Shown: piece after piece, positions 18,680 to 51,813 of the stretch | How positions within the stretch are numbered: the stretch's first letter is position 1 | How the letters are laid out: each line of letters opens with the position of its first letter | Origin: a virus | Lineage: Duplodnaviria > Caudoviricetes | Strand: one strand, 5' to 3' | Length of the DNA: 56,410 nt | IMG/VR virus record: IMGVR_UViG_3300022592_000005 | Coordinates: 1-56,410 of that record | Made by a program: the position numbers and the translations under genes | The notes under the pieces: model-generated | What the model was told of the DNA's origin: nothing | The model's input: only the letters and a program-made list of their open reading frames with translations | The model's database searches: none

Positions 18680-18880
18680 TTATTTAGCGTCTTTTGGAAC
18701 TGGCTTTTTCTTCGGAGTCGGTTTTGGCGACTTTGGAGCTGCAGGACAGTTACCTTTCTTGTCTTTAGTTACGCAATTCTGTTCAGCTTTCTTTGCTTCT
18801 GGTGCCTTTGGAGCATCTGCCGCAAATGATGCTGTAGCAAAAACTGCCATCGACATCAATACAATTAAACTCTTTTTCAT
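18680..18880 (-). CDS. Small secreted protein
   Basis: AAGGAG RBS, signal peptide ending ASFA, Cys pair. Confidence 0.65.
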   Translation of the reverse strand: MKKSLIVLMSMAVFATASFAADAPKAPEAKKAEQNCVTKDKKGNCPAAPKSPKPTPKKKPVPKDAK

Positions 18881-18896
18881 AGGATCTCCTTTAAAA

Positions 18897-19206
18897 TGGT
18901 GGGATATTGGTTAATAAGGAATCCCACCGAAACCCCAGCTTAGCTAGTTTTTAGGCTGCTAAAGCGTATGCGCTATCGTTTGCATTTACGTTTTTTGCTT
19001 GATTTACGGTCATCGCCTACCGTGCTGTCCACTCGTTTACTTGTTGCCCTGTCGAAACCATGGCATCCCCATCAAAAGAACTCTTTAGTAAAGTCTGAAG
19101 CACTATTTTGGCTGTCTCTTTACAGGATGAAGAATTCTTTTGGTGGAGATGGTGGGAGTCGAACCCACGTCCAGAACACTTTTCTCTTTGCTTCATACAG
19201 CAATTC
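18897..19206 (-). ncRNA. ssrA: Permuted (two-piece) tmRNA, tag (A)ANDSAYALAA
   Basis: GGACGTGGGTTCGACTCCCACCATCTCCACCA (CCA at 19141) precedes GGGGATGCCATGGTTTCGAC (starts 19070); tag ORF 18951-18983; outer ends approximate. Confidence 0.93.
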
Positions 19207-19410
19207 TTAATTCGTATGTAGTCTGAATCTTTCTAAAAACGCATCAACCAAACATTCATATGTTCGATCTTCAGCATGACTACCATACGAAATCCAAATA
19301 TCATTATCACGTTGTTCAATTCCACGAACGGTAAAGGTTTTGTAATTAGAACCCATCCATTCACTTCCTATCTTAATCATATTATACCCCATAAAATCTT
19401 GCACGTCAAT

Positions 19411-39175: not shown

Positions 39176-40570
39176 TCACTTGTTGCTATTGGCACGAACT
39201 TCTTCAAAAGAGATCTCACCAGTCAGTTTACCATCACGATAAACTTCTTGCAATACTTCAGTCCATCCCAAACCTTTGTCAGTCCAACCAGTTGGTTTAG
39301 TGACAGAAGATTGATACTCTCCACCACTTTCCCACAATGTGACACGACCAGCTTTGGATTTCTTACCACTGTCAGTGATAGGATCTTTTTGCACATCAAC
39401 CCACACTCCATTGATTTGAGCAGATGAACATTTCATTGCAAACTTTTGAGTATCACGATCCAATTGTTGCAACAATGCACCACCCATACCAAAGGCAATG
39501 TTATCAGCTGACCATCCGTAGACCATGAAGTCACCGAGAATCATGCGGATAGTGTGTTCATTGACACCATCACCCTGAATCAAACGCACATTGTTCAACA
39601 CCTTGAAACCTTTGTCGTTGGTAGTGTAACCGAACTTCTCACCAAGGATGCGAATCAACTGACGGCAGATAGTAAGTGGGTCGCCACTATCTGGACGAAT
39701 GACAACAGTAGCGCCACTCTCAACAATTTCTTGTCGGAGTTCTTCTCCCCAAAGTTTTGATGCGGCATTAAACACATCATAGCTATCAGAAACCACAGCA
39801 ACAATGCTGCCAGGTTTAGCAAAGTTAGTAAGCATATTGCGATAAGCATTTACTTCTCCATCTCGACCCCAAGAAGTGATAGTACTGTGTTCAGCAGCAG
39901 GGATACTGAATCCAGCAATTCCTCCGTTGTAATATTCACGAGCGTACAGAATGCCAGTGACAGTGTCACTACCCATAAAATTAACAAGGTGCGCAGCACC
40001 ACCAATTCCTGCACTTTCCATACTAGAAACACCCCTAGCACCAAAGTCATGTAGCTTAAAGTTGATAGTAGAAGGGTCACCAGTTTTCTCCAAATAGTCA
40101 AGAATTACTTTTTTGATAGATTTACTTTGTGTCGCAACAGTGGTAGGATACCATACCGCACGAAGCAAAGCAGTCTCAAGATAAGTTGTCAGCCAGTAGC
40201 ATTCTGGATCAGTGTTTTCAATTGTCGCCAGAACATTTTTAACAGGGACCACTGTGCCTTCAGGTACAGCACGAATAATGACTGGGAGATAACCTTTGTG
40301 CTGGCGTAGGATATATTCCCATCCATCTCGATTGAAGGGTTCTCCATGTGCCGTAAGAATCTCATCCGCAACATCAATGTCGGCTTGGGTAATTGGCTCA
40401 AGTAAATACTCCTTAATAAACGCTTGGAGACCGAACATCACAGTAGTGTCATATCGACCACCACGAGATTCAATATAAGAATATACACCAGTTGTGCCAA
40501 CTGGGTATTGTTTGAACATGCTAACTTTGTAGCTGTCTGTGTTCAACAGAATGTTTTTTGCGAGTTTCAT
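39176..40570 (-). CDS. nadV: Nicotinamide phosphoribosyltransferase
   Basis: TDSYK, LHDFGARG, SIPAAEHS, VSDSYD, IRPDSGDP, IQGDG, FGMGG.LLQ; GGAG RBS. Confidence 0.95.
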   Translation of the reverse strand: MKLAKNILLNTDSYKVSMFKQYPVGTTGVYSYIESRGGRYDTTVMFGLQAFIKEYLLEPITQADIDVADEILTAHGEPFNRDGWEYILRQHKGYLPVIIRAVPEGTVVPVKNVLATIENTDPECYWLTTYLETALLRAVWYPTTVATQSKSIKKVILDYLEKTGDPSTINFKLHDFGARGVSSMESAGIGGAAHLVNFMGSDTVTGILYAREYYNGGIAGFSIPAAEHSTITSWGRDGEVNAYRNMLTNFAKPGSIVAVVSDSYDVFNAASKLWGEELRQEIVESGATVVIRPDSGDPLTICRQLIRILGEKFGYTTNDKGFKVLNNVRLIQGDGVNEHTIRMILGDFMVYGWSADNIAFGMGGALLQQLDRDTQKFAMKCSSAQINGVWVDVQKDPITDSGKKSKAGRVTLWESGGEYQSSVTKPTGWTDKGLGWTEVLQEVYRDGKLTGEISFEEVRANSNK

Positions 40571-40580
40571 AGTAATCTCC

Positions 40581-41555
40581 TTACAGTTTTGCAAAAGCTG
40601 GCATCGGCATGACACCAGTAACCTTACTAATGATGTCTTTATGATCATCATACATGTCGATACTGTTAAGTGCATCAGTAAGTGGCACCCACTTGCACGA
40701 AGCAGCATCATCAGCACCATTGGCACGTGGTAATGAATAATCAGGGTTTGGGCTGATACGCATATACACTGCCATGGTGTTTCTTGGAATACCGAACGAA
40801 CGATAAGGATTATCGAACAATTCAGTCTTCACGATTGAGCCACGTAGAACCTTCTCAGGAACACGGACGTTTGTTTCTTCAATCAACTCTCTGATTGCGC
40901 AGTCAAGAAATGTTTCACGCTGATTGCGAAAACCTCCTGGAAGTGCCCATGCATCTTTTCCTGGGCTGAATTTGCGCTGAATGAGAAGGACATGTCCTTG
41001 GCACTCAAGCACTGCATCGGAACAGTTGAAGTTGAGAGTTTCGGGGAATGGATAATTTTTAAATAATTCTTTTTCTTTTTTGTAAAATGCATAGTCACCT
41101 TGAACAGTTGCTGGCATATCTGGATCTTTAAGATCAAACATGCGCTGACGAATATTAGTGGCGTCCATGTTGTATTGGGATTCAATGTCTTTAAATTTCA
41201 ATTCTGGAAACCAGCGAAGGTAGTTGTTACCTTCTTTCATGTGTCCGAACAGAATCGGCGAACCCATTTCAAAATGTTCAATGGTCGCACGTACATCTGA
41301 CATCCACTGTGTGTCACTGTATCGATAGTCGTTTAGGGGAATAATTTCGTAGTTATCAATACGAGCATTGTGCATTTTGAGACGAATCATATTTGATCGT
41401 TCTTCAAATGTCCAAGGGTTTTTGATACTACGACATGTGTTGGCTGAACCAACAAGGATGTAGAGTTTATCTACTTGGGAAGCAGCCACTCCAATTGCAT
41501 GGACGTGACCTTGATGAATGGGCTGGAATCGCCCGATGAATATACCTGTTTTCAC
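40581..41555 (-). CDS. nadM: Bifunctional NMN adenylyltransferase / ADP-ribose Nudix hydrolase
   Basis: GRFQP.H.GH, NP.TF.ER; WALPGGF....E......REL.EET Nudix box; DH..II. Confidence 0.93.
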   Translation of the reverse strand: MKTGIFIGRFQPIHQGHVHAIGVAASQVDKLYILVGSANTCRSIKNPWTFEERSNMIRLKMHNARIDNYEIIPLNDYRYSDTQWMSDVRATIEHFEMGSPILFGHMKEGNNYLRWFPELKFKDIESQYNMDATNIRQRMFDLKDPDMPATVQGDYAFYKKEKELFKNYPFPETLNFNCSDAVLECQGHVLLIQRKFSPGKDAWALPGGFRNQRETFLDCAIRELIEETNVRVPEKVLRGSIVKTELFDNPYRSFGIPRNTMAVYMRISPNPDYSLPRANGADDAASCKWVPLTDALNSIDMYDDHKDIISKVTGVMPMPAFAKL

Positions 41556-42551: not shown

Positions 42552-42625
42552 TGGAGCGGGATAAGAGAATCGAACTCTTAACCGAAGATTGGAAATCTGC
42601 TGTTTTACCATTAAACTAATCCCGC
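42552..42625 (-). tRNA. tRNA-Gly(TCC)
   Basis: Cloverleaf, loop TTTCCAA, CCA end. Confidence 0.92.
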
Positions 42626-42668: not shown

Positions 42669-44087
42669 TTATATGGCGTAGCGATCAGCCATGACTGCCT
42701 TAAGCATAATTGCTTCTGGAGTGAACTGTTCAGTATCACCACCAAGAACTGCAACCATGATTGCTGGAGAGAAGCCAGATACCAGTGCAACTCCACGAGT
42801 GTCGTACTTCACTGGCACATTGTCCTTGGCGTTTAAATTCCAGAAGACAATCTTTGGTACTTCATAACCAGCTGATTCAAACTTACGAGCAATCATTTGC
42901 ATTGCGGAGTCGTCGAAACGAGCGCATTGGTCAAATTGCATGTCAGAAAGAATCAACAGCATTTCTGGCATTTCTTCTTGTGGTACACCACCTTTAACAG
43001 CAGTAGAAAGAATCTTGTCCATTGCTTTCACAAGATCAGTATTCATTCCCCATTCAGAAGATACCATTTGGCTGCACTTTTGTAGAATGTTACCATTCAA
43101 GTGCAACAGTTCTGGATTACCAGAGAAAGTCAAGAATGTATCCTTGAACTTACCCTTGTTCTTGTCTGCAAGGTATAAACCCAGCGACACGGCAACGTCC
43201 ATACATGTAGTTCCAGAATTGCTTCCGTGACCACCAGCTGGGCATGCCATAGAACCAGATACGTCAACCAGTGGCAACACGTTAGCGTCACCAACAAAGT
43301 TTTGCATTGCTTCCCATTGCTTTTCAATTAAAGCAACTTGAGTTGCGTTGTAGTTGTTACGGTATGAACCGATAAGTCCCTTCAACACATCATATGGAAA
43401 CACTGCACCAGCATTTACCTTCACCTTTGGATTGTCACCCTTCACAAGAGCAGCAACATACTTCGCATACTCTGGAGTATTGCGGAAGAATGCCTTCTTG
43501 TAACGAGCAGCAGCAACAGATGGAACATGAGAGAAGTTAATCTCATCCCAGTTCTTTGCGCACATGTCAGTTTCAACAACCTTAGTCAATTCAACTAAGG
43601 ACTTACGATAAAACTTTGGAGACATGCCAAAGAAGTTACGGATTTCCACTGCTATCTCACCCTTACGTGGAGTCCACTTTGCAGCAAGACCATTCTTCTC
43701 ACGGAGAGCATCTCCCAACATTGTGAACGCAAATGGCTTAGTTGCTTCTACAACAAAGATGTCATCCCAACGACCGATCTCTGGAACTTTCTTCAACAGA
43801 GCAGTCGCAGCATCTGGATCATGTTTGTCCAAATACTTTAGGATCTGACGAAACAATTCACGTTCGCCAGCACCACCACGTGCATCACGTACCCATTGCG
43901 CAATACGCAGAGCAACTTCTTTGTTCTCTACATATGCAGCAACGAAATCTTTAGTGATGTCTTTACCACGTGATGCACCAATTTTGAAAAACAAGTCAAC
44001 ACATGCAGACGCAGTGGACTTGCGAGCAAGCATACCGTTTTCAGTACGTGCTTCTTGATTTTTAACCGCAGATACAAATGTATTCAT
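42669..44087 (-). CDS. DUF2828-family TROVE/Ro60-like helical protein with C-terminal vWA
   Basis: TENG, RD.RGG.GER, GRWDD, LAAKW.PR, DVSGSM, SDMQFD, IVFWNL, ALVSGFSP; AAAGGA RBS before ATG at 44087. Confidence 0.85.
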   Translation of the reverse strand: MNTFVSAVKNQEARTENGMLARKSTASACVDLFFKIGASRGKDITKDFVAAYVENKEVALRIAQWVRDARGGAGERELFRQILKYLDKHDPDAATALLKKVPEIGRWDDIFVVEATKPFAFTMLGDALREKNGLAAKWTPRKGEIAVEIRNFFGMSPKFYRKSLVELTKVVETDMCAKNWDEINFSHVPSVAAARYKKAFFRNTPEYAKYVAALVKGDNPKVKVNAGAVFPYDVLKGLIGSYRNNYNATQVALIEKQWEAMQNFVGDANVLPLVDVSGSMACPAGGHGSNSGTTCMDVAVSLGLYLADKNKGKFKDTFLTFSGNPELLHLNGNILQKCSQMVSSEWGMNTDLVKAMDKILSTAVKGGVPQEEMPEMLLILSDMQFDQCARFDDSAMQMIARKFESAGYEVPKIVFWNLNAKDNVPVKYDTRGVALVSGFSPAIMVAVLGGDTEQFTPEAIMLKAVMADRYAI

Positions 44088-44106
44088 TTTCATTTCCTTT
44101 ACAAAT

Positions 44107-44163
44107 AACAGGTTCAACTTTTCTCTAATTATGAAGTAGAATTAAATTTGCTGAACTGAACCT
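44107..44163 (-). ncRNA. Repeated small structured RNA, copy 1
   Basis: AGGTTCA..TCAGCAA..TGAACCT-GTT closing stem; internal hairpin loop TTCATAA. Confidence 0.7.
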
Positions 44164-44172
44164 AAATCAAAC

Positions 44173-44287
44173 AACAGGATAGTTTCCTACTTTTTGTTTT
44201 AAGTGAGAACTCGAAACTCACTTCGTCAGGCGAACCCGACCTAGTAGTGGTCTTTCGACCAAGTTAGTTGTTTGCAGAACCTATCCT
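44173..44287 (-). ncRNA. Repeated small structured RNA, copy 2 (long, multi-hairpin)
   Basis: AGGATAG..TCTGCAA..CTATCCT-GTT; internal GAAA and TTCG tetraloop hairpins. Confidence 0.72.
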
Positions 44288-44308
44288 TTTATCAACCTTA
44301 CAACCTAA

Positions 44309-44337
44309 AGTATACTCCTAAATGTCTTGCATGTCAA
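44309..44337 (-). promoter_or_regulatory. Sigma70-like promoter for the RNA pair and DUF2828 gene
   Basis: TTGACA-N17-TATACT. Confidence 0.8.
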
Positions 44338-44822
44338 GCAACTTTTCTTTCTGATTCTGCAAGAATATGTTTCATTCTGTCAGCGCAGTAAGAAGCTGCA
44401 AAGGCATTTGGCTTAACCATAGGAATAACATTACACATACCACGAATGTAGCCAACTGCTTCGTTGATGACACATGAACTGCCATGCATTTCGTTAGGGT
44501 TGATGTCCAAGTGGATTTCAACATCTCTATCTTCAAGCACGTCATGTAACTTGTGATACAACTCTGCAATTTTATATACTTCATTCATTAAACGCATACG
44601 TGGACGGTTTTTCTTTTGATCCCAGTCACGTTCTCTTTGAACTTCACCGAAAATCTTACAACCATGTTTACCGTCAATATGCACTACAATGGCAAGAGTA
44701 TAGTCAGCGTACCAATCGGATCCAATTAACATACGCTCAGAATCTGCACCAATGTAGATTTTTGTTTCGGGACTCTGTGCTTCGATGAACGCTTTTACTT
44801 CATCGATGTTAATAGTGCGCAT
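44334..44822 (-). CDS. RNase H-like YkuK-family protein
   Basis: IYIG.DS, RL..EV, EIHLD.N, GY..G, KP.AFAAS..ADR. Confidence 0.8.
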   Translation of the reverse strand: MRTINIDEVKAFIEAQSPETKIYIGADSERMLIGSDWYADYTLAIVVHIDGKHGCKIFGEVQRERDWDQKKNRPRMRLMNEVYKIAELYHKLHDVLEDRDVEIHLDINPNEMHGSSCVINEAVGYIRGMCNVIPMVKPNAFAASYCADRMKHILAESERKVA

Positions 44823-44850
44823 GATACATCTCCATTCTTTTTGAAAATTT

Positions 44851-44925
44851 TGGAGCAGGATATCGGGTTCGAACCGATGACATTCTCGTTGGCAACGAGA
44901 CATTCTACCACTGAATTAATCCTGC
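44851..44925 (-). tRNA. tRNA-Gly(GCC)
   Basis: Cloverleaf, loop TTGCCAA, CCA. Confidence 0.93.
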
Positions 44926-44927
44926 AT

Positions 44928-45001
44928 TGGCATCCCGCCAGAGACTCGAACTCCGACCAAGGGTTTTGGAGACCCACGTGCTGCCATTACACCAGCGAGA
45001 T
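44928..45001 (-). tRNA. tRNA-Trp(CCA)
   Basis: Cloverleaf, loop CTCCAAA, CCA. Confidence 0.92.
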
Positions 45002-45423
45002 ATTTTTACTTTGATTCGTTCAAGAGTTGCTTATTCTCTGAGAGAGTTTGCTCTTGAAGTTTCTTTTGATATTCTTCATTTGTCAGCGAATGCCAACCCA
45101 CACAATCACCAGTTGGGCTACGACCACATCCACATGTTCCAGTTCTTTGTTCACTCATAGTCTTTTCCTTTTTACCAAAAATAATATCCCAACGATTGTC
45201 AAATGTTTCTTTGTCAACCGAGAGTGGTCTTGGTTTATCACCCTTACCACCTGTTCCACCATTCCAATGTTCAGCCATTTAATCTTTCCCTCATGTCTTT
45301 TTTCTGGGCACTTCTTTCAGATTTCCAGAAAACACGTTTCCATTCTTTCAAATGTTTCCACCACTGTGGAGATTTAGTCAAATTACCTTGCTTAACATTA
45401 GCCATAATATTCTCCACAAAACT

Positions 45424-45499
45424 TGGTGCCCATTTACGGATTCGAACCGCAGACCTCCTCATTACTAATGAGATGCTCTACCAACTGAGCTAAATGGGC
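45424..45499 (-). tRNA. tRNA-Thr(AGT)
   Basis: Cloverleaf, loop TTAGTAA, acceptor GCCCATT, CCA. Confidence 0.88.
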
Positions 45500-45509
45500 A
45501 TGAAATTAC

Positions 45510-45773
45510 TTAGTCAACAACAGCAACAATGTTCTCTTCTTCAATGATAACTCGTTGAGCACCATCAACAGTGACAACACTTGCTTTATTCCATTCAAGA
45601 TAAACCACATCACCAACAGCCACTACCGTAACATCTGGTCCAATTGCCAACACAGTTCCAGTTTTAGATTCACGAACAGATCTTGCGTCATCGAGAATAA
45701 TACCAGACTCAGATTTTACTTCTGATTTGTTCTCGGCAATGAGAACCTTCTTCTTCATGGGTTTGACAATCAT
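45510..45773 (-). CDS. groES: GroES-like co-chaperonin
   Basis: KP...VLI, SGIIL, G.VLAIGP.V..V.VGD.V, I.EE.I.AV. Confidence 0.88.
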   Translation of the reverse strand: MIVKPMKKKVLIAENKSEVKSESGIILDDARSVRESKTGTVLAIGPDVTVVAVGDVVYLEWNKASVVTVDGAQRVIIEEENIVAVVD

Positions 45774-45800
45774 ATCATCCTTTTTCACTTAACAAAAAAT

Positions 45801-46879: not shown

Positions 46880-46956
46880 TGGTGCGTTAGACAGGAATCG
46901 AACCTGCTACATGCTGTTTTAGAGACAGCCACCCTTACCTTATGGGTTACTAACGC
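46880..46956 (-). tRNA. Amber suppressor tRNA (anticodon CTA)
   Basis: Acceptor GCGTTAG/CTAACGC, anticodon arm GCTGT-CTCTAAA-ACAGC, T-arm GCAGG-TTCGATT-CCTGT, ACCA. Confidence 0.88.
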
Positions 46957-48887: not shown

Positions 48888-48966
48888 TGGCTCCGCATTT
48901 GAGGATCGAACTCAACTAACCACTGATTAACAGTCAGGTCCATGCACCTTGCTCGGATTTTGCGGA
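48888..48966 (-). tRNA. tRNA-Asn(GTT), second copy with atypical D-arm
   Basis: Loop CTGTTAA, TCC acceptor start, GCCA. Confidence 0.82.
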
Positions 48967-49049: not shown

Positions 49050-49124
49050 TGGTGGAGACCGAGGAAATCGAATCCTTCTAGACATTTTCCTTGCAAGGGA
49101 AAACCGTAGCCCACTACTGCCCCC
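49050..49124 (-). tRNA. tRNA-Ala(TGC), reduced D-arm
   Basis: G3:U70, loop CTTGCAA, D-arm only GTAG-TGGG-CTAC. Confidence 0.8.
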
Positions 49125-49707: not shown

Positions 49708-49809
49708 GTCATTCTCCTATTAAATTAAACTACCAAACAGAAACACATTGCCCCATAGACATAGCAGATCATTACTAGTGGTCTACGATTTACGCAATGC
49801 ATTTCTGTT

Positions 49810-49883
49810 TGGCACCCCGAACAAGATTCGAACTTGTGATAGTTGAGTCAAAGTCAACTGTGTTACCGCTACACTATCAGGGA
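49810..49883 (-). tRNA. tRNA-Gln(TTG)
   Basis: Loop CTTTGAC, GCCA. Confidence 0.9.
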
Positions 49884-49993
49884 ACAGACGATCGATGACT
49901 CCAGCGAACTTTCATCACCGATCGTTTTAAAACAGAATCCCAAATTTTTAATGAACATTTAAGTAGCTGACAATTTTCAACTACCGAGCAGGA

Positions 49994-50022
49994 AGTATAC
50001 CCCATAACAGGATATAAGTCAA
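49994..50022 (-). promoter_or_regulatory. Sigma70-like promoter at the head of the tRNA array
   Basis: TTGACT-N17-TATACT. Confidence 0.75.
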
Positions 50023-50064
50023 GCACTAATTTTAATAACCTTACATGATAGTAGGTTATCCTAC

Positions 50065-50104
50065 AAAACAAAAAACCCCGAAGACTCTCATCTATCGGGG
50101 TTTT
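50065..50104 (-). terminator. Intrinsic terminator (candidate attenuator)
   Basis: CCCCGA..AGAT-GAGA-GTCT-TCGGGG followed by TTTTTTGTTTT. Confidence 0.85.
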
Positions 50105-50127
50105 GAAAAATAAAGTAAGTTTACAAT

Positions 50128-50247
50128 CTACTTTTCAAAACCCCCACGATCAATCTCTTGCGCATATCCAAAAACATTGCGTGATGTTGACCAGCCACTA
50201 TTAAGTGGTAAGTGTTTCATCGGCTGTCTGGATATACAAAGTTTCAT
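50128..50247 (-). CDS. Leaderless 39-aa leader peptide containing all 20 amino acids
   Basis: ATG 7 nt after a consensus -10; 3' end complementary to the 5' arm of the terminator. Confidence 0.65.
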   Translation of the reverse strand: MKLCISRQPMKHLPLNSGWSTSRNVFGYAQEIDRGGFEK

Positions 50248-50254
50248 GATTGAA

Positions 50255-50283
50255 ATTATACTTCTTTCTTGGTTAAATGTCAA
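50255..50283 (-). promoter_or_regulatory. Consensus sigma70 promoter for the leader ORF
   Basis: TTGACA-N17-TATAAT. Confidence 0.88.
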
Positions 50284-50363
50284 GCGATTTTTTACATCGC
50301 TAATGTATTTAGTCATATTATATCTCAAAAACGACTAAATGTCAAATTATTTTAAAAAAATTT

Positions 50364-50702
50364 TCAACGACGGTAACAGAAATTTCCTGTCACTGGTTGA
50401 CCATTGACCATCTCACTACGTAACTCACAGGTTTGTCCTGGCATCGGAATAACAGGTGCATCGGAAGGATACACATATACTGTCGGTGGCTGAACTGGCT
50501 GTTGATAATACACGGGTGGAGCTGGATAGTACACTGGTGGTGGCGAATAGACATAAGTCGGACGCTGGGTCAAAATGTTGCCAATGACAACACCGACACC
50601 GAACGGAACCCATGGGCTATAGTAGCCACCATTTGCGTGGGCATGAGCAGGAACTGTCAGCAAAGATGCAGCGAGTGTAACACCAACTATAACCTTCTTC
50701 AT
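50364..50702 (-). CDS. Secreted Pro/Tyr-rich protein
   Basis: AGGAG RBS, signal peptide, PPPVYY repeats. Confidence 0.65.
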   Translation of the reverse strand: MKKVIVGVTLAASLLTVPAHAHANGGYYSPWVPFGVGVVIGNILTQRPTYVYSPPPVYYPAPPVYYQQPVQPPTVYVYPSDAPVIPMPGQTCELRSEMVNGQPVTGNFCYRR

Positions 50703-50816: not shown

Positions 50817-50951
50817 TCAGAGTACTTGGTAGTCTTCCTTGCCCACACCACACTCTGGACACTCAAAATCGGCTGGGAGATCTTCCCACTTACCTTCGGT
50901 GGCTTCATCGTGGACATGCCCACATACAACACAAACTCTTTGCTGTTCCAT
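50817..50951 (-). CDS. Rubredoxin
   Basis: CVVCG..WEDLP.DF.CPECG..K.D. Confidence 0.9.
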   Translation of the reverse strand: MEQQRVCVVCGHVHDEATEGKWEDLPADFECPECGVGKEDYQVL

Positions 50952-50962
50952 GTTAATTTCCT

Positions 50963-51364
50963 TTATTTTGTTTTCTCTGCTATATTCTTGTAACCAGCCC
51001 AACTTGGATGAATCTTGTCTGCTTGCCAGCGTGTAGTTGGAATAACAACATCACCGAATTGGTTGGCAACTGAGCGAACATTTTTAACTGCTTCTGGTTT
51101 GCTTTCCAGATTTGGCTCAATCCAAAATACTCGCTTACCTTTTACTTTATTGCGAATCTCTACTAGTTTTGCATGAGTGTCTGCTTTTTCCCAATCATTG
51201 GTACTTAAACTAATGATAACAGTTTCAGCGGACAGGTCATGCATACCATACTTCTTGTCCCAACCATGGCTAGTGATACCACCTTTAGCATAGCCCGCAC
51301 ATTCTGGGCGAAACATCTTAGTGCCAACAGCAATACTATCGCCGATGATTAGACATTCTAGCAT
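50963..51364 (-). CDS. SGNH/GDSL hydrolase-like protein
   Basis: IIGDSIA, S.STND, D.IHP..GY. Confidence 0.8.
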   Translation of the reverse strand: MLECLIIGDSIAVGTKMFRPECAGYAKGGITSHGWDKKYGMHDLSAETVIISLSTNDWEKADTHAKLVEIRNKVKGKRVFWIEPNLESKPEAVKNVRSVANQFGDVVIPTTRWQADKIHPSWAGYKNIAEKTK

Positions 51365-51813
51365 TATAGATTTTCCAATTGTTGTTTGTATGCATTCGCA
51401 TGTCGTTCTTCAACACGCTTCAAAGCTGCGAATCGTTTTTCAGCTTTTGCAAGAACTTCCTTAAATTGTTCAGCGTGTTCTTCTGATTCGGCAATTTGTT
51501 GTTGTATTTCAGCAGCTTCAAGAATTCGCCCTTCGGCGATTGCTTCTTTTTGCATAGTTGGATACATCTGAGTGAACTCATATGTCTCACCTTCAATTGC
51601 TTTCTCAAGACATTCTTTGGTAGATGGCTTACCGATTAGCAACTCAAGATGACCCCATGCATGTTTGATCTCTTGATCAGCAGTGTGTTCAAAGTGTTTC
51701 GCAACATCTTCGAAACCTTCTTCACGTGCAATCTTAGCGAAATAACGATACTTGATATGAGCCATTGATTCGCCAGCCAATGCACTCTCAAGATTTTGTA
51801 ATGTTACGGACAT
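51364..51813 (-). CDS. Rubrerythrin (ferritin-like domain only)
   Basis: T..NL..A.AGES.A..KY..FA..A..EG, E..HA, AI.GE.YE...MYP, E..HA. Confidence 0.9.
   Translation of the reverse strand: MSVTLQNLESALAGESMAHIKYRYFAKIAREEGFEDVAKHFEHTADQEIKHAWGHLELLIGKPSTKECLEKAIEGETYEFTQMYPTMQKEAIAEGRILEAAEIQQQIAESEEHAEQFKEVLAKAEKRFAALKRVEERHANAYKQQLENL

Follow-up and report, generated by a model that had tools for sequence, protein, structure and literature searches.

The window analysed here, a stretch of 56,410 nucleotides (nt) from a virus of the Caudoviricetes (Duplodnaviria; IMG/VR record IMGVR_UViG_3300022592_000005, positions 1 to 56,410), contains a large array of transfer RNA (tRNA) genes, which is preceded by an element composed of a promoter, a short open reading frame (ORF) and an intrinsic terminator (positions 50065 to 50283). 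We propose that this element is probably a ribosome-mediated transcription attenuator, which is located at the head of the phage tRNA array and gauges the decoding of all amino acids. As shown by the comparison with homologous loci, the anatomy of the element is conserved, both of its alternative helices covary, it retains its position at the array head, and the complete set of amino acids in its leader peptide is kept by selection. An interpretation made beforehand without any comparison, in the following referred to as the sequence-only reading, had suggested that a stall of the ribosome at almost any codon of the leader lets transcription proceed into the tRNA genes, and in its main lines this proposal is supported by the comparative evidence.

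All features of the element lie on the minus strand. The leader ORF extends from position 50247 to 50131 and ends with a TAG stop codon (50130-50128). Its 39 codons comprise 33 different ones, among them all four Gly codons as well as ATA, AGA and TTA, and specify each of the 20 amino acids. The ORF is located 245 nt ahead of the tRNA-Gln gene with which the array begins and on the same strand, as is typical of the short upstream ORF of an attenuator. The promoter P2 (50283-50255), a sigma-70 type promoter that corresponds to TTGACA-17-TATAAT in 12 of 12 positions, is placed such that only 7 nt separate its -10 hexamer from the ATG at position 50247. Because of this spacing, the leader messenger RNA (mRNA) is expected to be leaderless or nearly so. 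In addition, a second perfect promoter with a 17-nt spacer, P1 (50317-50345; 12/12 match), is present 62 nt ahead of P2. In transcripts initiated at P1, the leader ORF would be preceded by a 5′-region of approximately 60 nt without a clear ribosome-binding site.

The end of the ORF forms part of a switch with two alternative hairpins. The last five codons together with the stop codon (50144-50128, corresponding to nucleotides 104-120 of the ORF) constitute arm 1, the 5′-arm of a putative antiterminator, which pairs with arm 2 (50119-50097), the 3′-arm, within an inverted repeat spanning positions 50097-50144. The intrinsic terminator (50065-50104) consists of a hairpin (50104-50072) followed by a run of six T residues (50075-50070), a G and a further TTTT. 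Since the last 8 nt of arm 2 (50104-50097) are at the same time the first nucleotides of the 5′-arm of the terminator, the two structures exclude each other, with a predicted free energy (ΔG) of -26.4 for the antiterminator hairpin and of -18.0 for the terminator. The 184-nt transcript as a whole folds with -60 kcal/mol, and none of 200 shuffled sequences was as stable (z = -5.55). Downstream of the terminator and in front of tRNA-Gln, a further promoter, P3 (50022-49994), matches the consensus in 10 of 12 positions and would give expression of the array that bypasses the switch. The sequence-only reading had described the promoter directly adjacent to the ATG, the codon inventory of the ORF, the pairing of its last codons in competition with the terminator, and the promoter beyond it, and each of these descriptions proved accurate.

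To obtain homologues, we made use of a phosphoesterase gene located inside the tRNA array. This gene has 375 relatives in viral contigs, and 80 of the corresponding loci, comprising 703 kilobases (kb), were fetched. By tblastn the leader ORF was detected in 32 of these 80 loci; 30 loci contain a complete ORF, and the distinct sequences number 26, with 36-46 residues and 38-78% identity to the first row of the alignment. The layout of the element is thus kept in uncultured T4-like phages, and both the ORF and the pairing of its end in the antiterminator are present in all 26 homologues. The start methionine is found at the same place throughout. As several homologues have in-frame stop codons just upstream of the ATG, the similarity that extends further upstream reflects the conserved promoter read as protein. 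Indeed, in 24 of the 26 homologues a promoter with at least 10 of 12 matches ends 6-10 nt before the ATG, and the homologues devoid of such a promoter, together with some diverged members, have a purine-rich sequence resembling a ribosome-binding site in front of the start codon.

The position of the leader is likewise constant. Where the ORF is complete (30 of 30 loci), the leader heads the array, as the same strand is free of tRNA genes upstream of it, and tRNA-Gln(UUG) is the first gene thereafter, 107-485 nt past the stop codon. The latter gene follows the leader even in two loci where the leader itself is preceded by another tRNA gene (L076 and L082). The related arrays contain up to 39 tRNA genes, and in 14 loci all 20 isotypes are present within the fetched stretch. 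Among 18 further loci with a visible array head, nine have an ORF of 30-50 residues with all 20 amino acids, four (L042, L043, L083 and L105) have a short frame that comprises 18-19 types of residues and precedes a site resembling a terminator, and in the remaining five a small leader-like frame is absent.

Neither a blastn search with positions 49880-50420 nor a tblastn search with the leader peptide (E-values up to 1) yielded a match among 50,697 phage records, so that no cultured phage in this set carries the leader. An exact 19-nt pattern search of the viral contigs likewise gave no match. When relatives were sought via the genes on the upstream side, the hydrolase gene (21 loci) gave no blastn match and a different gene order in which the leader was not reached, and at the two loci found with the gene for a neighbouring 118-residue protein the gene order also differs and no tRNA genes follow the 118-residue gene. 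Synechococcus phage BUCT-ZZ01, the closest cultured relative as judged by two proteins, lacks a tRNA array at the corresponding position.

The most distinctive property of the leader is its amino acid content. Of the 267 ATG-to-stop ORFs in the window with a length of 30-45 residues, the leader ORF is the only one to contain all 20 amino acids, and among stop-free stretches of 39 residues only 41 of 27,809 do so. The complete set is present in 24 of the 26 distinct homologues. When residues were shuffled within the columns of the alignment, which keeps the make-up of each column and breaks the links between columns, on average 4.1 of 26 and at most 11 of 26 sequences contained all 20, and none of 5000 shuffles reached 24, a count that is not to be read as a probability as the homologues are related by descent. 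Moreover, random peptides with the composition of the family, which is itself already flat, reach all 20 amino acids with P of about 0.01 each. The diversity of the leader thus stands out from both shuffled and background sequences, as the sequence-only reading had anticipated.

This completeness is maintained although the individual residues change their places. Cys, His, Trp and Asp occur as single copies in 24-25 of the 26 homologues and Tyr in all 26, Val likewise being present mostly once, and still Cys is found in 6 different alignment columns, His in 4, Tyr in 4 and Val in 12, which indicates that the loss of a residue at one place is accompanied by its gain elsewhere. In line with these results, when 1.84 billion cluster representatives sharing less than 50% identity with each other were searched, 35 proteins matched, of which 13 are partial and were excluded; of the 22 that match the full profile, 18 contain 20, three contain 19 and one contains 17 of the amino acids. 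Strongly diverged leaders of 34-46 residues, whose switch arms have other sequences, also contain all 20. As a control from the same genomes, we inspected the small ORFs across the fetched loci (703 kb). All 20 amino acids are present in 50 of 1934, and 37 of these 50 precede the first tRNA gene by no more than 700 nt; among the others, two are leaders that lie before tRNA-Gln behind another tRNA gene and two overlap with tRNA genes.

The possibility that the frame is a chance ORF was considered as well and rejected on the basis of the rarity of complete sets in the window, the column shuffle and the control with ORFs from the same genomes.

Next to the peptide, the switch itself is conserved. 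A terminator hairpin (ΔG of -14 to -21) with a T-run behind it is present in all 26 homologues, and all 26 have an alternative hairpin of 17-23 base pairs that is stronger than the terminator (ΔG of -20 to -32) and whose 5′-arm is the end of the ORF. On the alignment A2, 82.8% of the cells in the antiterminator are paired, as compared with 35-56% when the partner strand is slid, and in 8 of its 23 pairs both sides have changed. For the terminator the corresponding values are 97.2% and 28-67%, with changes on both sides in 6 of 14 pairs. As the structures were derived from the same sequences that were used for this pairing test, they are somewhat favoured by it; RNAalifold recovers the antiterminator independently. 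Nine alignment columns are common to both helices, which renders the two hairpins mutually exclusive across the family. In one homologue the end of the peptide and its partner arm are altered together, and diverged leaders with different arm sequences retain the layout. The compensatory changes in both alternative stems are as expected from the sequence-only reading.

The ORF overlaps with the switch in every case, since arm 1 begins 13-23 nt before the stop codon in all 26 homologues. When the last codons and 12 nt past the stop codon were masked, mimicking a terminating ribosome, the terminator was the predicted fold in 26 of 26. In addition to the three arms, a C-rich stretch in the middle of the ORF (50170-50180, minus strand; Ser/Thr-Arg-Pro codons) is nearly invariant at the nucleotide level, including third positions, and its sequence allows pairing with the G-run of arm 1. 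It may constitute a fourth arm, as in the classical four-arm design, or a pause signal. A search for such an upstream arm, forming a 1:2 hairpin, revealed no consistent register, at most 4 of the 26 homologues sharing one.

These structures could in principle function without the frame. The long hairpin might be a processing or stability signal, for instance a site for a double-strand-specific nuclease at the 5′-end of the tRNA precursor, with the frame being incidental. The length of the hairpin (17-23 pairs), its strength relative to the terminator, and the invariance of the arm 1 codons at the nucleotide level are compatible with this view. However, it leaves unaccounted for that the frame, its start, the position of its stop and the content of all 20 amino acids are conserved despite divergence of the sequence, and that the invariant Leu column is encoded by five and the invariant Pro column by three synonymous codons. 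Moreover, no Rfam family matches the element. We consequently consider an element acting solely as RNA highly improbable.

The synonymous variation at the Leu and Pro columns, together with the conserved start, the in-frame stops upstream of it and the sequences resembling ribosome-binding sites, suggests that the leader ORF is translated. Translation alone is also compatible with a free-standing early gene, the product of which, either the peptide of about 40 residues or the terminated RNA of about 180 nt, acts in trans, with the terminator ending the transcription unit and the array being expressed from promoters of its own. This explanation can draw on the conserved core motif of the peptide with its synonymous variation, on the unusual degree of structure in the transcript (z = -5.55) and on the promoters located past the terminator in 18 of the 26 homologues. 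Furthermore, trans-acting leader peptides and attenuator RNAs have been reported from Sinorhizobium (PMC7298713, PMC6614838). In contrast, it provides no reason why a complete amino acid set should be kept through positional turnover, why the end of the ORF should always be arm 1 of a hairpin competing with the terminator, or why the gene should have a fixed place at the array head, and in 8 of the 26 homologues no other promoter is found before the array. The peptide belongs to no Pfam or PHROG family, and its 51 homologues in a collection of 5.8 billion proteins are all unnamed or designated hypothetical. A gene acting in trans therefore appears unlikely to us.

Returning to the attenuator, we envisage the following course of events. 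Transcription would be initiated at P2, a strong promoter, and the 5′-terminal AUG of the transcript would be bound by a ribosome. If the 39 codons were read promptly, the ribosome would cover the last codons and the stop codon during the synthesis of arm 2 and of the terminator 3′-arm; arm 1 would then be masked, the terminator hairpin would form, and the transcript would end before tRNA-Gln. If the ribosome were late or stalled upstream, arm 1 would pair with arm 2, the 5′-arm of the terminator would be withdrawn, and the polymerase would enter the tRNA genes. As all amino acids are represented in the ORF, most of them by a single codon, read-through could be elicited by delayed decoding of almost any isotype. 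In this way, the phage would raise its own tRNA supply when the decoding capacity falls and lower it again once the capacity is restored. We thus infer that the leader is translated, that the position of the ribosome decides the fold, and that read-through rises upon stalling.

The same anatomy would also serve an attenuator that reports the overall activity of translation or the availability of ribosomes, as they differ between early and late infection, upon host shut-off or in the presence of antibiotics, instead of the state of single tRNAs, comparable to the drug-induced stalling attenuators. A switch with three arms reads through whenever the ribosome is late for any cause, and the codons of the leader are not specially matched to the tRNA set of the phage, both of which fit this alternative. 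However, such a sensor needs no complete amino acid set, and the set is under selection; in addition, the regulated genes encode tRNAs. Moreover, the variety of codons is above the simulated mean in 24 of 26 homologues and significantly so (P < 0.05) in 13 of 26, although the simulation used the codon usage of the window for all sequences, so that a weak codon bias alone could yield this result. On balance we hold an overall-rate sensor to be rather unlikely. The natural trigger of the attenuator may be tRNA loss, amino acid shortage or a change in the overall translation rate, which are not distinguishable from the sequence.

In its strictest form, the attenuator would be a minimal gauge for all tRNAs: a single run of one ribosome would test the whole decoding set, the array of about 30 genes would be turned up once any host tRNA is depleted, and it would return to the baseline once the tRNA is restored. 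The depletion could result from decay after host shut-off or from defences based on anticodon nucleases, and the element would then act as a homeostatic sensor in counter-defence. We put this version forward tentatively, as a possibility that falls somewhat short of an even chance. Such a sensor would be a design that has not been described for any tRNA genes.

Several observations weigh against the proposed attenuator or limit what it can achieve. First, some concern the peptide. Its conserved core motif, with invariant Lys, Leu and Pro columns, is unexplained by coverage of the amino acids alone, and it is possible that the motif exerts a nascent-peptide effect or functions in trans. The overall pN/pS of 0.65 indicates only mildly purifying selection. 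The two homologues with incomplete sets lack Gln (L037) and Cys (L045), yet their arrays encode the respective tRNAs, so that a residue missing from the leader is not paired with a tRNA missing from the array. Likewise, in a comparison with the codons readable by the phage tRNAs, leader codons score 0.90-0.97 and the bulk of phage codons 0.95-0.98 (four loci), so that the leader shows no better match.

Second, the geometry is not equally favourable for all codons. In all 26 homologues, fewer than 13 nt separate the only Asp codon from arm 1, and the same holds for the first Glu codon in 10 of 26. Given the footprint of a ribosome, one stalled at Asp or Glu should mask part of arm 1, and two of the 20 amino acids may thus escape simple sensing. 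In this simple geometry, the earlier suggestion that a stall at almost any codon frees the antiterminator therefore fails for Asp throughout and for Glu in these 10 homologues. In addition, when the naked full transcript is folded, the state of minimum energy is the terminator for 17 of the 26 homologues and the antiterminator for 8, so that either might prevail without translation.

Third, expression of the leader and of the array has to be considered. Leaderless mRNAs are often poorly translated. Contigs from public RNA runs (X15-X18) match the window only at positions 49802-49886, corresponding to tRNA-Gln, and are unlike it beyond; they derive from other organisms and are uninformative with regard to expression of the leader. 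Starvation for an amino acid would not be relieved by extra tRNA. Finally, 18 of the 26 homologues, including the one in the window, have one to three near-consensus promoters between the terminator and the array, and the switch can therefore only modulate and not gate the expression of the array. This agrees with the caveat of the sequence-only reading that the promoter P3 may give basal expression. In five loci (L034, L037, L036, L044 and L032) up to three such near-consensus promoters are arranged in tandem, approximately 100 nt apart, between the terminator and tRNA-Gln.

The array downstream of the switch extends from position 49883 to 44851 on the minus strand, beginning with tRNA-Gln(UUG) (49883-49810), and small protein genes are interspersed in it; an additional tRNA-Gly gene (42552-42625, minus strand) is located outside. 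The number of 31 tRNA genes given by the sequence-only reading is obtained with ARAGORN at a relaxed threshold, whereas ARAGORN at its default setting predicts 27 and Rfam at its gathering score 29. Genes for Tyr and Cys, together with weak predictions for Ala and a second Asn, appear in the relaxed set only. The tRNA-like stretches at 48888-48966 and 49050-49124 (minus strand; Asn GUU and Ala UGC, respectively) were found with relaxed ARAGORN only and have no Rfam match at E-values up to 1; without the stretch at 49050-49124, the array has no tRNA-Ala. A perfect -35/-10 promoter is present within the array (47454-47426, minus strand), which together with P1 and P2 makes three perfect matches in 11 kb.

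The array also encodes an amber-suppressor tRNA with the anticodon CUA (46880-46956, minus strand), and the stop codon of the leader in the window is TAG. The next in-frame stop codon is again TAG (50094-50092) and is located just beyond the shared arm. If the leader TAG were suppressed, the ribosome would pass over the 5′-arm of the terminator, and termination should be blocked, resulting in positive feedback. In most relatives the leader stops with TAA. TAG is the rarest stop codon in the window (4 of the 53 ORFs with 120 or more residues), but there is no indication of amber recoding.

The protein genes of the window encode T4-like baseplate and tail proteins with at most 37% identity to known phages, and the G+C content is approximately 40%. 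In the tRNA region (42669-45788, minus strand), protein genes specify a DUF7788/DUF2828 protein (annotated as RNA-binding in PHROGs), an RNase H-like protein and a homologue of Cpn10/GroES. A gene for a transfer-messenger RNA (tmRNA) is located at 18860-19248 (minus strand). It scores 118.9 bits with the betaproteobacterial model of Rfam and 145.8 bits with the model for permuted tmRNAs, and ARAGORN predicts a tag of 10 residues; this gene hints at a betaproteobacterial host and at an interest of the phage in the rescue of stalled ribosomes. In addition, auxiliary metabolic genes for nicotinamide phosphoribosyltransferase and rubredoxin are present (39176-40726 and 50817-51813, minus strand). 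Judging by its translation, the ORF beside rubredoxin presumably encodes a rubrerythrin-like protein.

The role of tRNA arrays in phages and the mode of their control are a matter of ongoing debate. The reasons proposed for carrying them include the compensation of codon usage, the replacement of decaying host tRNAs and the escape from tRNA-cleaving defences (PMC10264068). A leader with all 20 amino acids under selection, combined with a covarying terminator switch at the array head, points to a control of the tRNA genes that is driven by demand. Searches of article full texts retrieved no published case of tRNA genes controlled by a leader peptide.

A long tRNA array that is induced under translational stress has been described with the trn operon of Anabaena (PMC8421152, PMC10272220), and the phage element would resemble it in that impaired translation turns on an array of supernumerary tRNA genes. 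However, the trn operon is reported to be controlled via direct repeats over the -10 box and the start site, i.e. by a repressor (PMC8421152), unlike the phage element; the words 'leader', 'attenuat' and 'terminator' do not occur in the main text of that article.

T-box riboswitches likewise couple the status of tRNA to read-through of translation-related genes by a choice between terminator and antiterminator. However, they bind one uncharged tRNA directly and contain no ORF, in contrast to the phage element. Moreover, no T-box or other Rfam family was found at or near its gathering score in positions 49850-50400, the best hit being an unrelated small RNA model on the other strand with an E-value of 0.067.

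Besides the yxjB leader mentioned below, other attenuators are known in which a drug induces the stalling of ribosomes. In such systems, as proposed for the phage element, any stall of the leader ribosome frees the antiterminator, and the output helps translation to recover. However, what their leaders sense is a ribosome with a bound drug at a particular peptide motif; these leaders are not known to be selected for a complete amino acid set, and their targets are resistance genes. The tylosin-induced yxjB leader is described as a ribosome-stalling attenuator of this kind (PMC6851288).

The anatomy also resembles that of the attenuators of amino acid operons (trp, his, phe and leu, as well as the multivalent thr and ilv), which share with the phage element the short ORF, the intrinsic terminator and the mutually exclusive antiterminator. 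Moreover, in both cases the choice of the fold is expected to depend on the position of the ribosome, with termination being favoured once the leader has been translated to its end. There are also clear differences. The leaders of the phages start without a 5′-leader in 24 of 26 cases and have their stop codon inside arm 1, and their switch has three clear arms, whereas no register for a further arm upstream is shared by more than 4 of the 26 homologues. Moreover, the known attenuators control biosynthetic enzymes and the phage element tRNA genes. The phage element shares four structural features with leader-peptide attenuators and departs from them in the defining one, the regulatory run of codons for one amino acid, which is replaced by the complete set of 20 amino acids, mostly in single copy. 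If the proposed function holds true, the phage element would represent a compact natural part of approximately 220 nt that reports the global decoding capacity, and leader-peptide attenuation, so far a matter of single amino acids and of enzymes, would extend to the whole decoding set and to tRNA genes.
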